Below, in pieces: positions 4,232-8,532 of a stretch of 10,874 bases of DNA. Where the stretch lies: UHGV virus genome UHGV-0126855; one strand, given 5' to 3'. Under the pieces are notes generated by a model. It saw nothing but the letters and a program-made list of their open reading frames with translations. It was not told the origin of the DNA and made no database searches. How positions within the stretch are numbered: the stretch's first letter is position 1; each line of letters opens with the position of its first letter. Source of the stretch: a virus. A program made the translations under genes and the position numbers.

Positions 4232-5123
4232 CATATCTAATCTAGCCGAAGCCAGAGAGGCCAGAAGGCTACAACAACCGCATCAAAGCAGCGGTAAGGG
4301 GTATGCCTTGCTGCACCGTAAAATTATGGATGTGCCGTTTTACAAGGACGCAGAAGCAGCGCATCTGTGGGTTCACTTAATCCTCAAAGCAAAGCATACG
4401 CCTGAGTATGTAATGACTGACGCAGGAGAAATTCTGGTAGGCAGAGGGAAGCTACTTGGCGGTAGAAACTCTCTGGCGTTTGAAACAGGACTCAAACCAG
4501 ATCGCGTTCAGTACCTGCTTAGAAAGTTCAAAAAACTCGGCATGATTGACTGGGTTTCACACGGTAAATTCTCAGTTTTCTCGGTAGAGAAATATGACGA
4601 TTATCAGTCAAATTTTGTACCAGCAGATTACCAGCAAATTACCACCTCAAAGCCAGCAATACCAATGCCTGCAAGCAATACTGTACCAGCAGATTACCAG
4701 CAAATTACCACAGATAAAGAATATAATAATATTATCTCTAATACTGACGTATTAGAGAGTGCCACAGCAGACAAAAAGTCTGACAAGAAAAAACCTTCCG
4801 TCAGCTGTCAGGATGTTGTCGATGCTTACCACGAAATCCTTCCTGAAGCGCCAAGAATCCGCGCACTGAATGACAAGCGTAAAAACCAGATCCGAACGTT
4901 CTGGCGCAAAGCCGGAGTGATAACCCGCCAGCTTGACGGGCATGGGTTCACGATGCAGGACTGGAGAAATTATTTGAGCTACGTAGGCGAAAATTGCCGA
5001 TGGATGTTCGAAGAACGCCCAAACCATCAACGCGGAACCGTCTGGCACAAAAAGGGATTTGATTTCCTGCTTAACGACAATACCTACCTGAAAGTTCGTG
5101 AGGGTGAACACGATGACCGATAA
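4224..5123 (+). CDS. O-like replication initiator (299 aa) with the origin embedded in its coding sequence
   Basis: It occupies the O position upstream of the helicase. SD aaggag (4211-4216) precedes ATG 4224. Internal iteron DNA encodes the repeated peptide [10 protein letters not shown]. The stop overlaps the helicase start. Confidence 0.7.
4616..4745. repeat. Putative replication origin: iterons plus an AT-rich tract
   Basis: Identical 30-bp direct repeats tgtaccagcagattaccagcaaattaccac lie at 4616-4645 and 4682-4711. Each holds two ~13-bp sub-iterons CCAGCA(G/A)ATTACC, with a degenerate copy ccagcaatacc between them. The AT-rich agataaagaatataataatattatctctaatact follows. Confidence 0.6.
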
Positions 5124-7578
5124 TTTTTATGCGCCGCCCCATAGCATCGAGGCAGAGCAGGCGGTGATTGGTGGATTGCTTCTGGATGATGACAGCAGTG
5201 AGCGCGTCCAGAAAGTTCTGGCGATGCTGAAGCCTGATTCATTTTACAGCCGACCACACAAAATCCTTTTCGAAGAAATAACCAGAATGCACCGGGAGCA
5301 AAAGCCAGTAGATGGCCTGACGCTTTTCGATGAACTGGAGCGTAAATCGTTAACGGCGTCTGTTGGCGGTTTTGCTTATATCTCTGAGATCGCAAAGAAC
5401 ACGCCAAGCGCAGCAAACATCGTTGCCTATGCAATGCAGGTTCGTGAAACCGCAATGGAACGCTACGCCATCAACCGCATGACTGAAGCGACGGAATTGC
5501 TCTATTCCCGCAACGGAATGACTGCAACGCAGAAGTACGAAGCTATTCAGGCGATTTTCACGCAACTGACAGATCATGCAAAAACCGGATCGCGTCGCGG
5601 CCTTCGTTCATTTGGTGAGGTCATGGAAGACTGGGTTAGCGACCTTGAGAAGCGATTTGACCCGTCAGGCGAACAACGAGGAATGAGCACAGGGATCCCA
5701 TCGCTGGACAGGATGCTGTCACCGAAAGGTCTGGTGAAAGGCTCTCTGTTTGTCATTGGCGCTCGCCCTAAGATGGGGAAAGCGCAACCGCTTAATTCAC
5801 GCATTTTGCTTGCTGATGGTTCATGGACAACATTTCGTGACGTATGTGTTGGAGATTCCCTAGCATCAGTGGATGGACAACCATCATTCGTGTCTGGAGT
5901 TTTTCCTCAAGGGGAGCGAGATATTTACCGAGTTACGTTCTCTGACGGAAGAACCGTTGATTGCGCGGATGATCATTTGTGGGAAATTCATAGTAACCGT
6001 ATTACCGGTGGCGTTGATGTTGTAGACACCTGCCGCCTACGGGACATGATGGAATGCGTTCGCTATCAAAGCCGCATTCATGTTCCTGGTATTAGCGGTG
6101 ACTTCGGATTGCCTGTTGATTTAGGGATTAGCCCATGGCTGTTAGGTGCGTTACTTGGCGATGGAAATCTTGCAGGTACGCCACGAATCAGCATGACGGA
6201 ACCATACATCATTGAGCGAGTAAGATCTGAAGTGGGTGACGATATTGAAGTCAGACATGTTTCTGGCTGCGATTACTCCCTATCTCACAAGTTTAGCCGC
6301 AAATTATCTCTTACGCGGGTTATGCAACGGATTGGTATCTACGGCCGGATGTCAGAGATTAAAATTATCCCGGATATTATTTTTTCTGCTGATAAGCAAA
6401 CTCGTATTGATGTTCTATGCGGATTACTTGAAACCGATGGTTGGGTTGAAGGAAATAATGCCCTGCGCTTTAGCTCGGCAAGCAAGTTCCTGTCAGATGG
6501 TGTAAAGCGGCTGGTGCATTCTCTTGGTGGCGTGTGTCGTATGACAACCAAACAGGAGCCGAAATTCAGTTATAAGGGAGAAATGCGCAAAGGTATGGAT
6601 GCCCATATTTGCGCAATCAGGTTGCCTGATGAGGTTCTATCACACATAAAATCTCCACGCCTGAAGCAAAAATTCACTGCAAAACGCATCAAAACAAGTG
6701 CGCCTGTTATCACGTCGGTTGAGTATATTGGACGTGAAGAGTGCATTTGCATCATGGTATCCCACGAGAGACATTTGTATGCAACTGACGGATACATTCT
6801 AACCCACAACACCACGCTATACAGCCAGATGGCAATCAACTGCGCAGTGTATGAGAAAAAGCCCGCTCTGATATTCAGCCTTGAAATGCCAGGTGATCAG
6901 ATACTGGAAAAACTGGTAGGGCAGAAGTCTGGTGTTAACCCGAATATTTTTTACCTTCCGGCGACAAATGACGCCGATGACGGCTATCAGGGTGATTACG
7001 ATGGTGACTTCAACAGGGCGATCGAAACAGCCAATCGCTTGAGTGAAATCGACATGCTTTACATCGACGACACGCCGGGATTATCTCTGGCTCAAATCGT
7101 CAGCGAAAGCCGTCGAATCAAGCGAGAAAAAGGATGTGTTGGCATGATTCTGGTCGATTACCTGACACTAATGACCGCTGAGAAGGCCGATCGCAACGAC
7201 CTTGCTTACGGCATGATCACCAAAGGACTGAAGAACCTTGCCAAAGAGCTTGATTGCGTTGTTGTGCTTCTGACGCAGCTTAACCGCGCACTGGAAAGCC
7301 GAACCAATAAACGCCCATTACCAAGTGACTCGCGCGATACAGGGCAGATTGAACAGGATTGCGATTATTGGGTGGGGATCCATCGTGAAGGTGCTTTTGA
7401 TGACAGTGTTCCACCTGGTGAAACCGAACTAATCCTTCGTCTCAATCGTCATGGCAATACCGGCACGGTGTATTGCATTCAGGCAAATGGCGCTATTTAT
7501 GACACAGACCAACAGTCTGCTGAAATGCGCCGCCGTGAACGCGAGGAGCCGCAGTCCAAGAAGAAAGGAGGATTCTGA
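5113..7578 (+). CDS. DnaB-family replicative helicase, intein-containing (alternative start GTG 5098)
   Basis: N-terminus PPHSIEAEQAVIGGLLLD and the C-terminal half (KPALIFSLEMPGDQ…LTQLNRALESR…) align with E. coli DnaB from memory. The Walker A GARPKMGK|TT is split by a 343-aa insertion. Excluding the insert, the protein is about 470 aa. Confidence 0.9.
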   Translation: MTDNFYAPPHSIEAEQAVIGGLLLDDDSSERVQKVLAMLKPDSFYSRPHKILFEEITRMHREQKPVDGLTLFDELERKSLTASVGGFAYISEIAKNTPSAANIVAYAMQVRETAMERYAINRMTEATELLYSRNGMTATQKYEAIQAIFTQLTDHAKTGSRRGLRSFGEVMEDWVSDLEKRFDPSGEQRGMSTGIPSLDRMLSPKGLVKGSLFVIGARPKMGKAQPLNSRILLADGSWTTFRDVCVGDSLASVDGQPSFVSGVFPQGERDIYRVTFSDGRTVDCADDHLWEIHSNRITGGVDVVDTCRLRDMMECVRYQSRIHVPGISGDFGLPVDLGISPWLLGALLGDGNLAGTPRISMTEPYIIERVRSEVGDDIEVRHVSGCDYSLSHKFSRKLSLTRVMQRIGIYGRMSEIKIIPDIIFSADKQTRIDVLCGLLETDGWVEGNNALRFSSASKFLSDGVKRLVHSLGGVCRMTTKQEPKFSYKGEMRKGMDAHICAIRLPDEVLSHIKSPRLKQKFTAKRIKTSAPVITSVEYIGREECICIMVSHERHLYATDGYILTHNTTLYSQMAINCAVYEKKPALIFSLEMPGDQILEKLVGQKSGVNPNIFYLPATNDADDGYQGDYDGDFNRAIETANRLSEIDMLYIDDTPGLSLAQIVSESRRIKREKGCVGMILVDYLTLMTAEKADRNDLAYGMITKGLKNLAKELDCVVVLLTQLNRALESRTNKRPLPSDSRDTGQIEQDCDYWVGIHREGAFDDSVPPGETELILRLNRHGNTGTVYCIQANGAIYDTDQQSAEMRRREREEPQSKKKGGF
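5782..6810 (+). other. Intein (~343 aa) with a LAGLIDADG homing endonuclease domain, inserted in the helicase P-loop
   Basis: The insert lies between GARPKMGK and TT(LYSQMAINCAV). It ends in THN followed by Thr +1 (nt 6802-6813). Two LAGLIDADG-type motifs are present: LLGALLGDGNL (aa 348-358) and LCGLLETDGWV (aa 440-450). The N-terminal boundary at Ala229 is inferred to within a few residues. Confidence 0.75.
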
Positions 7579-7670
7579 TGACCATCTACATCACTGAGCT
7601 AATAACAGGCCTGCTGGTAATCGCAGGCCTTTTTATTTGGTGGAGAGTAATTGGAGGATTTAAGAAATGA
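7578..7670 (+). CDS. Small hydrophobic peptide (30 aa, single predicted transmembrane helix)
   Basis: ATG 7578 overlaps the helicase stop (tgATGa). A strong SD aaggagg (7565-7571) precedes it. Translation is MTIYITELITGLLVIAGLFIWWRVIGGFKK. Its stop overlaps the next start (aATGAg at 7667-7670). Not in the ORF track. Confidence 0.45.
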   Translation: MTIYITELITGLLVIAGLFIWWRVIGGFKK

Positions 7671-7882
7671 GTACGATAGCTGAGCTTGTCAGGGCTAATT
7701 TTCGTGAAGAGTTGGTGCGTTGGTATCGGTATCGTTCATCGTCAAGTTTGCCGCTTGATGAGTTGTATGAGCATTCACCTGCCGCACGACGCTATCCGCG
7801 TGACCGTGTTCTTCGGCGGTTGTTCAGACTCAACAATGAGTTTCAGCGCAACAGAATTATCCGGAGTCTGGATTTAAAGTGA
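7667..7882 (+). CDS. Hypothetical protein (71 aa)
   Basis: ORF translationally coupled to the upstream peptide gene through an ATGA overlap. Basic and Arg-rich, with no recognised motif. The overlapping alternative frame 7686..7877 is less likely. Confidence 0.5.
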   Translation: MSTIAELVRANFREELVRWYRYRSSSSLPLDELYEHSPAARRYPRDRVLRRLFRLNNEFQRNRIIRSLDLK

Positions 7883-7892
7883 AGGAGTGAGC

Positions 7893-8129
7893 ATGAGCGA
7901 CCTATCATTGACCCAGCCAAAGCTAAAAGAATGTCCGTTTTGCGGCGGTAATGCTCGTCTGTGGGTTGAGGCCGGAATAAATATTGATGTGTGGGGCTAT
8001 GCAGAATGTGACCTCTGTGAAGCCAGGGGGGCATGGGCACCATCAGTTGCTGCGGCGGCTGAAAAATGGAACCGGAGAGCAGGAGATGAAGCAAACCTTT
8101 CTGCTTCGCAACGAAGCAATCAGAAATAA
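7893..8129 (+). CDS. Lar-family restriction-alleviation-like zinc-ribbon protein (about 78 aa)
   Basis: SD aaggag (7882-7887) sits 5 nt before ATG 7893. The CPFCGG…CDLC four-cysteine motif is typical of Lar-family proteins. The 3' end overlaps the ninB start out of frame. Confidence 0.5.
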   Translation: MSDLSLTQPKLKECPFCGGNARLWVEAGINIDVWGYAECDLCEARGAWAPSVAAAAEKWNRRAGDEANLSASQRSNQK

Positions 8130-8532
8130 CGCCATAGACGCCATTCTCTCACTACCCATCGACGACAAGTCACCCCACGAAGTCCACGTTAAAGAACCCA
8201 AGCGCAGCAAAGCGCAGAATGACCGTATGTGGCCGATGCTGAACGATGTTTCGCGTCAGGTGCTATGGCATGGTCAACGGCTGGCACCGGAAGACTGGAA
8301 AGACCTGTTCACTGCCCTGTGGCTTAAGACCAAAAAACTGGAGCAAAGAAGTGTGCCTGGTATCGACGGTGGCGTTGTCATGCTTGGCGTGCGTACCAGC
8401 AAAATGCGAAAGGCCAGCATGACTGAGCTTATCGAAATCATGTTCTGGTTCGGCTCAGAGCGCAACGTGCGGTGGAGTGATGACTCCCGGCGAGAGTATG
8501 AATGGTCACAACGAAAAGGGAAGGCTGCATGA
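8086..8532 (+). CDS. ninB: NinB (Orf) recombination protein (about 148 aa)
   Basis: Translation from the internal Met, MKQTFLLRNEAIRNNAIDAIL…[19 protein letters not shown], resembles lambda NinB (…WSDEARLALEWKARWGDRAA) from memory. Confidence 0.8.
   Translation: MKQTFLLRNEAIRNNAIDAILSLPIDDKSPHEVHVKEPKRSKAQNDRMWPMLNDVSRQVLWHGQRLAPEDWKDLFTALWLKTKKLEQRSVPGIDGGVVMLGVRTSKMRKASMTELIEIMFWFGSERNVRWSDDSRREYEWSQRKGKAA

Follow-up and report, generated by a model that had tools for sequence, protein, structure and literature searches.

The ninA-tR2 junction of a prophage as a probable translated bridge between the replication and nin genes

Introduction

In phage lambda, the interval between ren and ninB (40567-40647) holds a short open reading frame (ORF), ninA, together with the terminator tR2. 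Neither element is new: ninA was named in lambda in 1982, descriptions of both go back to the early 1980s, and hundreds of sequenced phages as well as thousands of E. coli prophages carry ninA/tR2. In lambda, read-through of tR2 is achieved by N antitermination. The start of lambda ninA overlaps the upstream stop and its ATGA stop overlaps the next gene. The nin genes are ATGA-linked, according to Kroger and Hobom as cited in PMC8022706.

Work on the lambda copy (Li et al., NAR 2016, PMC4824070) showed activity of the ninA start in E. coli, where mutation of its ribosome-binding site (RBS) or AUG changed reporter output. The start site halved upstream reporter expression and lowered tR2 termination by only ~10%. 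In the same study, the first ribosome seldom caught RNA polymerase within 100 nt; thus, ninA translation has little effect on termination. In vivo termination at tR2 was ~0.9 with a stop codon 28-30 bp upstream and <10% with the stop at 5 bp, the terminator being suppressed where a ribosome can come nearer than ~28 bp, and the native sequence preceding tR2 favoured termination. Finally, tR2-terminated transcripts carrying the ninA start become non-stop messages (PMC4824070).

The same cassette lies directly after a DnaB-type helicase gene in P22 (ninA), Sf6 (gene 45) and Nil2 (ninA). In Sf6, gene 45 is annotated as “similar to phage 21 NinA”, with tR2 and a “boundary sequence bsq6”. In pyrBI-type leader-peptide attenuators, too, an intrinsic terminator lies within or immediately behind a short ORF that is translated, and the position of the ribosome can mask the hairpin. 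Type I toxins and other small membrane proteins of enterobacteria, such as Hok, Ldr, TisB, Ibs and ShoB, are 19-50 aa long and consist of one hydrophobic helix with charged ends.

Here, we analyzed a ninA-like ORF in a 10,874-nucleotide stretch of the virus genome UHGV-0126855 (hereafter, the window). A first-pass annotation had presented it as an unannotated, translationally linked gene for a 30-aa hydrophobic peptide resembling small membrane-active toxins or regulators.

Results

The features of the locus are collected in Table 1. Genes follow in the order helicase, ninA, DUF7301, Lar and NinB, which matches the placement of ninA in P22, Sf6, Nil2 and HK544. The helicase start (true ATG at 5113) and end were set by aligning the 478-aa homologue from E. 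coli M15. At both junctions, the overlaps that the first-pass annotation had claimed are present: the helicase TGA (7576-7578) and the ninA ATG (7578-7580) have one base in common within TGATG (7576-7580), behind the near-consensus Shine-Dalgarno (SD) sequence it had noticed, and the ninA TGA (7668-7670) overlaps the DUF7301 ATG (7667-7669) within ATGA (7667-7670).

Table 1 Features of the helicase-ninA-DUF7301 junction (positions in the window)
Feature	Position	Strand	Details and basis
DnaB-type replicative helicase gene (upstream link)	5113..7578	+	Pfam DnaB and DnaB_C
Shine-Dalgarno AAGGAGG of the ninA start	7565..7571	+	6 nt before ATG, within helicase coding sequence
ninA ORF	7578..7670	+	30 codons plus stop, MTIYITELITGLLVIAGLFIWWRVIGGFKK; PHROG 5907, E = 2e-16
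Conserved spacer, codons 1-10, upstream stop to terminator stem	7578..7606	+	Alignment of 77 distinct cassettes
tR2 stem-loop, AGGCCTGC-TGGTAATC-GCAGGCCT	7607..7630	+	Terminator scan; 8-bp stem (6 G-C), 8-nt loop
U-tract of tR2, TTTTTATTT, codons F-I-W	7631..7639	+	Terminator scan; lambda identity
GGAGG ribosome-binding site of the DUF7301 gene	7653..7657	+	9 nt before ATG 7667; encodes part of the ORF tail
DUF7301 gene, 71 aa (downstream link)	7667..7882	+	Pfam DUF7301, E = 7e-26; RefSeq annotation in E. coli M15

Residues 1-26 of the product matched phrog_5907 (E = 2.1e-16), the family to which the lambda (1.6e-19) and HK97 (1.4e-17) versions also belong; a Pfam search returned no family for the 30-aa peptide. 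Judged by its sequence, 7578..7670 is the ninA ORF of lambda-like phages, which many phage records annotate. Its first 21 residues are identical to those of lambda ninA; two bases differ in the first 70 nt, one of them a synonymous change within the first 21 codons, and the hairpin and U-tract are the same. Unlike lambda, which has ren upstream, ninB downstream and the tail GRGKS (26 aa), this prophage carries an HK022-type DnaB helicase upstream, DUF7301 downstream and the tail WRVIGGFKK (30 aa), with the mosaic joint just past the U-tract. The Sf6 helicase ends exactly as the one here (aaaggaggattcTGATG), whereas P22, Sf6 and Nil2 all differ in their downstream genes and tails, and P22 ninA additionally in several synonymous changes and I9V. 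A more distant version, HK97 gp56/HK544_048 (32 aa, PHROG 5907, often mislabelled “histone H1”), has the same position and first 11 residues. It differs in its hairpin (GGGCTAT-TTACACA-GTAGCCC plus T6ATT) and in overlapping the next gene by 14 nt, out of frame.

A textbook intrinsic terminator, overlooked in the first-pass annotation, spans ninA codons 10-21 and begins 29 nt downstream of the ATG. The region 7590-7650 folds at -20.9 kcal/mol (z = -2.8), and the hairpin alone at -15.7 kcal/mol. Positions 7607-7630 are identical to lambda 40596-40619, and 7596-7640 to lambda L003 1186-1230; the Sf6 and Nil2 records label the homologous site “tR2”. On this identity, the terminator at 7607-7639 is phage lambda tR2.

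The terminator bears directly on the composition of the peptide. The tR2 stem-loop encodes residues 10-18 (TGLLVIAGL), the U-tract encodes FIW, and the R/K-rich tail is read from the purine-rich RBS region of the next gene. A frame written across a G+C stem, a U-tract and a purine-rich RBS yields a hydrophobic, basic-tailed sequence, so we infer that these properties are largely a by-product of the translated terminator and RBS. The single transmembrane helix with a basic tail that had been claimed is therefore there as a sequence (Kyte-Doolittle maximum of 2.04 in a 19-residue window), although the terminator and RBS explain its composition and a membrane function is not needed. The HK97-type peptide is only borderline hydrophobic (1.52).

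The window contains 148 ORFs of at least 25 aa, so a lone 30-codon ORF means little. We examined 230 related IMG/VR loci (phage contigs), and the conservation of the frame that the first-pass annotation had proposed to look for was found: 219 of them have a ninA frame that stays open across the terminator. The ATG is the exact upstream boundary of the conserved cassette, which occurs behind at least seven unrelated upstream gene ends. An SD core precedes this ATG in 6/7 unrelated upstream contexts, compared with 8.3% of all ATGs in the same loci. Among 105 distinct cassettes, the upstream stop overlaps or abuts the ninA ATG in 103, and the ninA stop overlaps the downstream start in 87, with several unrelated downstream genes. 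Given the open frame and the recurrent SD core, the start and stop overlaps with their SD are not due to chance. The 30-codon frame is real, and it is probably translated in this prophage. The earlier claim of a short ORF linked to both neighbours is thus supported, the ORF is conserved, and the start of the lambda copy is active in E. coli (PMC4824070).

The terminator is conserved along with the frame. A hairpin plus T-run directly follows the ninA N-terminus in 130/134 N-terminus matches; the remaining four comprise three endonuclease insertions and one unrelated match. Where other hairpins follow the same N-terminus, their folding energies are still -12.6 to -14.6 kcal/mol, and pair-preserving changes distinguish them. 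The lambda-type and HK97-type stems lie in different registers (i+j = 29 versus 30), making them replacements, not covarying versions of each other; consequently, counting of covariation was dropped, and pair-preserving changes were read directly and complemented by folding. The terminator is also kept in five frameshifted copies and one nonsense copy.

The ORF ranges from 20 to 34 aa across cassettes, and its tail is not conserved, changing with the downstream gene (GRGKS, GRGK, GRVNRG, GRGKCG, GGEK, W/GRVIGGFKK, CIRNRVR); in one form, TGG>TGA cuts the ORF to 20 aa. A Leu>Gln replacement in the hairpin loop falls in the middle of the supposed helix. Every replacement at residues 2-10 is conservative (I/V/M/L/A; T/S/A), one nonsense allele apart. 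The peptides of two other hairpin versions and of the endonuclease-insertion frame are still hydrophobic, the insertion frame ending in a KK tail. Synonymous-site constraint, which had also been put forward as a check, did not hold up. Synonymous changes were in excess in our first sample (8 versus 6 non-synonymous, p = 0.013), but addition of the HK97-type sequences left 9 versus 11 (p = 0.05; +1 frame control, p = 0.13; transitions only, p = 0.45). As the excess faded in the larger sample, we do not claim selection at the amino-acid level.

Complete E. coli genomes contained roughly 3,000 copies. A scan of genome contigs returned 44 matches, mostly uninformative. Some were identical to lambda, several of these on short, low-coverage contigs of unrelated taxa and probably lambda DNA contamination, and further ones proved to be unrelated terminators with the common GGCCTGC...GCAGGCC stem. 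Informative non-lambda copies were found only in Escherichia, E. albertii, Shimwellia and two probably mis-binned MAGs.

Discussion

We propose that 7565-7670 constitutes a ninA-tR2 junction cassette, that is, a translated bridge carrying coupling across tR2 with codons 1-10 as its spacer, and we give this reading a probability of roughly 0.78. The module, ~90 bp in length, leads from the replication genes to the nin genes, and three signals overlap in it: an SD with its ATG where the last replication gene stops, tR2 as intrinsic terminator 29 nt past this ATG, and the RBS and start of the first nin-region gene at the stop of the ORF. Codons 1-10 would serve mainly as a spacer, putting a conserved 28 nt between the helicase stop and the hairpin and keeping a ribosome that finishes the helicase gene from blocking hairpin formation. 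Read-through transcripts would arise by N-type antitermination, as in lambda. On these transcripts, ribosomes would restart at ATG 7578, translate through the ORF, melt the hairpin and terminate on ATGA, and translation would carry over into the DUF7301 gene, so that ninA would head the nin region's “chain of interlinked genes”. The coupling to the DUF7301 gene would follow from the overlap; however, this gene has a good SD of its own (GGAGG, 9 nt), so coupling may not be needed. The conservative variation of the first ten residues, the nonsense allele aside, is another counterpoint to a bridge. Translation of ninA could serve to couple genes across the terminator, to bring about non-stop decay of terminated transcripts, or to make a real peptide.

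If the peptide itself were the purpose, NinA would be a genuine small single-pass membrane protein (a toxin, an exclusion factor or a regulator of a host membrane protein) sharing its DNA with the terminator, which we consider unlikely. The ORF resembles Hok, Ldr, TisB, Ibs and ShoB in size, in its hydrophobic helix and in its charged ends, the lambda copy has an active start site (PMC4824070), and the frame is open through the terminator in nearly all loci; yet both the hydrophobic core and the basic tail follow from nucleic-acid signals, namely the hairpin, the U-tract and the SD of the next gene, and frameshift and nonsense alleles exist with the terminator intact. Conservative replacements throughout residues 2-10 would fit a functional peptide, as did the synonymous excess until it was lost in the larger sample. 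The HK97-type hairpin version retains a G-x6-LF-x-W pattern, although its peptide is only borderline hydrophobic, and the endonuclease-insertion frame is again hydrophobic with a KK tail; hydrophobic peptides from other hairpins and from the insertion frame are also what one would expect of a real small membrane protein. The unconserved tail and the mid-helix Leu>Gln speak against it, and since tR2-terminated ORFs lack a stop codon, tmRNA would be expected to tag a large part of the product for degradation. For the toxin role suggested by the first-pass annotation, no support emerged. Rfam gave no family at E <= 1 in 7000-8200, and the antisense promoter scan gave one weak minus-strand site (9 of 12) where shuffles expect 1.3. 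Neither an antisense RNA nor a promoter of its own, as in type I toxin-antitoxin systems, was therefore found. Unlike type I toxins, ninA is one member of an operon chain joined by translational coupling, known deletions remove it, and some phages carry naturally disrupted copies. Specifically, ninA is located in the lambda nin5 deletion (PMC3349717), and a P22 ninA-ninH deletion lysogen is listed among constructed strains (PMC11016777). These deletions and the natural null alleles indicate dispensability, not absence of toxicity.

Less probable still is that ninA acts like a leader-peptide attenuator, the position of the ribosome deciding termination at tR2. The geometry is suggestive, with a terminator 29 nt past the start of a short ORF, as in the pyrBI-type arrangement discussed by Li et al., and moving the stop codon to 5 bp from tR2 brought termination below 10%; nevertheless, silencing the ninA start of the lambda copy changed tR2 efficiency by only ~10% (PMC4824070). 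When a 146-nt region was folded, no antiterminator structure that would compete with the terminator appeared: the MFE fold and the centroid fold both centre on the terminator hairpin, lengthened by pairing of the A-tract with the U-tract, and the region folds no better than shuffles (z = 0.08). Unlike pyrBI-type attenuators, then, ninA has no alternative RNA structure and no run of regulatory codons, and it is under N-type antitermination control, the known source of lambda tR2 read-through. Least credible of all is that the ORF has no meaning of its own and arises as a by-product where a terminator and recombination “boundary sequence” is conserved, unselected for translation. A nucleotide sequence that is near-identical everywhere is what a recombination linker would show, Sf6 labels it bsq6, and codon-level selection is not robust, but such a by-product would not account for an SD core at the ends of 6/7 unrelated upstream genes when 8.3% of all ATGs have one, for a stop overlapping the next start in 87/105 cassettes with several unrelated downstream genes, or for the experimentally active start site of the lambda copy (PMC4824070).

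Two readings that do not exclude each other strike us as rather unlikely: a real tiny inner-membrane protein whose gene doubles as a terminator, and an active ninA start serving as a deliberate non-stop device. In the latter case, without N antitermination, ribosomes would run off the tR2-terminated 3' ends, recruit tmRNA and destabilise the cII-O-helicase message. If true, the level of replication proteins would be tied to the antitermination state.

The locus also carries a caution for the annotation of small genes. A hydrophobic ORF that is short and perfectly coupled at its start and stop can turn out to be an intrinsic terminator seen in translation, because a G+C stem, a U-tract and the RBS of the next gene are read as Gly/Leu/Ala, then Phe/Ile, then Arg/Lys.

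The description of the ORF as unannotated holds in part. It is unannotated in the RefSeq record of E. coli M15 (100% match, window 7300-8000) and in Stx2a_F451. On the other hand, a near-identical 30-aa version is annotated in phage Dewey, and the exact 30-aa protein is a “hypothetical protein” in GenBank/UniRef, from 27 contigs; database names within the ninA family are “NinA protein” and “HK97 gp56”. Annotation pipelines are thus inconsistent: RefSeq PGAP records lack the ORF, others call it “NinA” or “hypothetical”, and the HK97-type version goes under “histone H1”.

An ORF of the ninA family encloses tR2

Sequence comparison identifies the 30-codon ORF between the helicase and DUF7301 genes as already known: it belongs to the ninA/PHROG 5907 family and encloses the lambda terminator tR2, with every sequence-level feature tested for this membership present. 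The features described in the first-pass annotation were all found in the sequence, namely the ATG sharing its A with the helicase TGA, the AAGGAGG, the 30-codon frame and the overlap of the ninA TGA with the ATG of the 71-aa gene. That annotation had overlooked that codons 10-21 are an intrinsic terminator. It is base-for-base equal to lambda tR2 (...aaaagATGACCATCTACATTACTGAGCTAATAACAGGCCTGCTGGTAATCGCAGGCCTTTTTATTTGGGGGAGAGGGAAGTCATGA..., located between ren and ninB); the corresponding ATG there forms an ATGA overlap with the stop of ren, and the lambda frame, MTIYITELITGLLVIAGLFIWGRGKS, terminates in an ATGA on ninB. The 61-nt region around the terminator folds at -20.9 kcal/mol (z = -2.8), and the hairpin alone at -15.7 kcal/mol.

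Read in the ORF frame, the hairpin gives T-G-L-L-V-I-A-G-L, the U-tract gives F-I-W, and the Arg/Lys/Gly tail comes from the purine-rich ribosome-binding region ahead of the following gene; each part of the predicted peptide corresponds to a nucleic-acid signal. The remaining two hairpin frames give a stop and RPAGNRRPFYL.

Features of the ninA-tR2 junction and of variant loci
Feature	Position or loci	Strand	Details	Source
DnaB-type helicase gene	5113-7578	+	stop TGA 7576-7578	sequence
Shine-Dalgarno AAGGAGG	7565-7571	+	6 nt before ATG 7578	sequence
ninA ORF	ATG 7578-7580 to TGA 7668-7670	+	30 codons, MTIYITELITGLLVIAGLFIWWRVIGGFKK	sequence
tR2 stem-loop	7607-7630	+	AGGCCTGC-TGGTAATC-GCAGGCCT; 8 pairs, 6 G-C	terminator scan
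tR2 U-tract	7631-7639	+	TTTTTATTT	terminator scan
Downstream 71-aa gene	ATG 7667-7669	+	Pfam DUF7301, E = 7e-26	Pfam
Codon-2 deletion copies	L213, L217, L252, L256, L274		ATGACATCTAC...	IMG/VR
Endonuclease-like insertion	L012 6334-7061; also L087, L115, L067, L078			IMG/VR

The window, a lambdoid prophage of E. coli, is 100% identical to E. coli M15 over positions 7300-8000; gene order in M15 is cII, O-like, DnaB-like helicase, DUF7301, Lar, NinB and methyltransferase, followed by NinE/F/G/H, phosphatase and a Q-like antiterminator. The frame is without annotation in the M15 record, and the description of it as unannotated is right only in part. In a tblastn search, 402 of 50,697 phage records matched the peptide, most at residues 1-23 with at least 95% identity, and the peptide also matches PHROG 5907 (E = 2e-16). 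The site is annotated as 'ninA' and 'terminator' in P22, as 'ninA' and 'tR2 terminator' in Nil2, and in Sf6 as 'gene 45, similar to phage 21 NinA', together with 'bsq6; boundary sequence' and 'terminator, homology to lambda tR2'. HK544 has a 32-aa protein 'similar to HK97 Gp56' at the site, and phage Dewey a 30-aa hypothetical protein. Public protein sets contain the exact 30-aa sequence on 27 contigs as 'hypothetical protein', its Gly22 version on hundreds, and the lambda version under the name 'NinA protein'. The window's Trp22, the rarer form, arises from the T at 7641; in most relatives sharing the downstream gene this base is G (TGG TGG vs TGG GGG). GenBank records of E. coli, Salmonella and Shigella widely label HK97-type NinA (gp56-type, 32 aa) as 'histone H1', evidently a propagated misannotation.

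In the literature, ninA counts among the nin-region genes that are non-essential in lambda and P22; it lies inside the nin5 deletion (lambda 40,503-43,307; PMC3349717), and homologues are listed for the epsilon34 nin region (PMC2629481). For the ATGA-linked nin genes, PMC8022706 refers to Kroger and Hobom 1982.

The terminator is conserved more robustly than the frame

Across the collected loci, the terminator is the more robust partner. A hairpin and T-run directly follow the N-terminal pattern in 130 of 134 matches; of the four exceptions, three are loci where an inserted HNH-endonuclease-like gene separates codon 10 from the hairpin, and one is an unrelated match arising by chance. Stem changes are C>U substitutions that keep G-U pairs, or a change at the stem base, and all hairpin variants fold at -11.6 to -15.8 kcal/mol. 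The same N-terminus is also followed by the HK97-type hairpin (GGGCTAT-TTACACA-GTAGCCC) and by versions of it with pair-preserving changes. Several copies carry Leu>Gln in the hairpin loop.

Conservation of the reading frame in related phages, proposed earlier as a check, was borne out: it is open through the terminator in 219 of 230 hairpin-anchored loci. These 230 include five identical copies with a 1-nt deletion in codon 2 (giving MTSTSLR*) and one with GAG>TAG, all with the terminator intact, and five with the endonuclease insertion. The deletion copies keep the SD, a spacer 1 nt shorter and an HK97-type terminator; being ninA-null by nature, these phages could be used as controls.

The cassette boundaries coincide with start and stop signals

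IMG/VR loci were gathered by three anchors: the tR2 hairpin, the N-terminal codons and the HK97-type hairpin. The left edge of the conserved block is exactly the ATG, preceded by at least seven unrelated gene ends, including ren, the HK022-type helicase and P22 gene 12. The upstream stop overlaps or abuts this ATG in 103 of 105 distinct cassettes (ATGA 70, TGATG 20, abutting 13). A core SD (GGAG, GAGG or AGGA at -16 to -5) is present in six of the seven upstream contexts, the seventh having AAGGGG. For all ATGs of these loci taken together, the figure is just 8.3%. Because stop-ATG linkage and a core SD recur across unrelated contexts, initiation at the ninA ATG looks selected.

At the right edge, sequences diverge just past the U-tract, depending on which gene comes next. 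The ninA stop overlaps the next start in 87 of 105 cassettes (53 ATGA, 34 GTGGCTGA), and the tail is unconserved (GRGKS, GRGK, GRVNRG, GRGKCG, GGEK, W/GRVIGGFKK, CIRNRVR). One copy with the window's downstream sequence has TGG>TGA, shortening the ORF to 20 aa; in another the tail is frameshifted by a +1 T within the U-tract, and in a third the ORF is fused in frame with the next gene.

A proposed spacing and coupling model, and a possible role of the peptide

In lambda, tR2 stops ~90% of transcripts if the upstream stop codon is at least about 28-30 bp away and <10% if it is at 5 bp, since a ribosome terminating there prevents the hairpin from folding; the native preceding sequence favours termination over random sequence (0.8 at 18 bp vs 0.12 at 17 bp) (Li et al., NAR 2016, PMC4824070). 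Mutating the NinA RBS or AUG restored an upstream reporter expression that had been halved; the authors ascribe the halving to non-stop mRNA and trans-translation. From these mutants it also emerged that NinA translation reduces termination by only about 10% (PMC4824070).

In the window, the helicase stop lies 28 nt from the stem. The embedding of tR2 in ninA, the strong SD and the chain of overlapping starts and stops are established. Our model suggests that codons 1-10 are chiefly a spacer, which would allow tR2 to function with the translated helicase gene so close by. When antitermination lets transcripts read through, translation would resume at 7578, the ribosomes would open the hairpin, and the ATGA would pass them on to the DUF7301 gene. 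On terminated transcripts this start would yield stop-less messages. Fold analysis of the region gave no alternative antiterminator structure, and a classical attenuator was rejected for this reason.

Selection at the amino-acid level is unproven, because the codon test gave p = 0.05, with p = 0.13 in the +1 frame control and 0.45 for transitions alone. This sample comprised 238 hairpin-anchored loci (23 haplotypes, codons 2-10), with 20 distinct variants, nine synonymous and 11 not, 26% synonymous being expected. The synonymous-site constraint suggested as a check was apparent in a smaller earlier sample (p = 0.013) and not firmly in the larger one. Replacements are conservative (I/V/M/L/A, T/S/A), apart from one nonsense allele. 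The proposed resemblance to small membrane-active toxins gained no further support: the likeness to type I toxins is limited to size and hydrophobicity, Rfam and a promoter scan found no antisense RNA or private promoter for ninA, and the gene falls within known deletions, with naturally disrupted copies in some phages. A role of the peptide, or of its translation, beyond linkage, as a genuine membrane peptide or a deliberate non-stop-decay switch, is considered improbable.

Neighbouring insertions and stray copies

The helicase gene carries a 343-aa insertion (about 5782-6810) that looks like an intein, exactly inside the Walker A motif (GARPKMGK / AQPLNSRILLADGS ... YILTHN / TTLYSQ). Both flanks share 99-100% identity with the E. 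coli M15 homologue, a 478-aa protein that lacks the intein. Pfam matches of the insertion, to Hom_end_hint and LAGLIDADG_3, are weak; it begins with Ala, not Cys or Ser, and ends in HN, followed by Thr. The insertion is possibly an intein of class-3 type with a homing endonuclease, carried by a lambdoid prophage of E. coli, and may deserve more attention than the ninA finding.

The insertion between ninA codon 10 and the tR2 hairpin is an HNH-type homing-endonuclease-like gene of 203 aa (IDHVNGNRLDNRISNLRLATEEQN), which leaves a chimeric 34-aa hydrophobic ORF (MTIYITELIAGLSLLMVLTVYIIKYILYANKKTN). A single nucleotide separates its TAA from the hairpin that follows, an arrangement in which tR2 should be suppressed, going by Li et al. 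(PMC4824070). The conserved cassette may be the homing target of this endonuclease.

Finally, lambda-identical ren-ninA-tR2-ninB was found among the matches of a genome contig scan (L150-L193) in assemblies of unrelated organisms, including Psychrobacter, Pseudoxanthomonas, Oceanobacillus, Neobacillus, Nocardioides, Bradyrhizobium and Paenibacillus. Several of these contigs are short, with about 1x coverage, and the sequence is most likely lambda DNA contamination.
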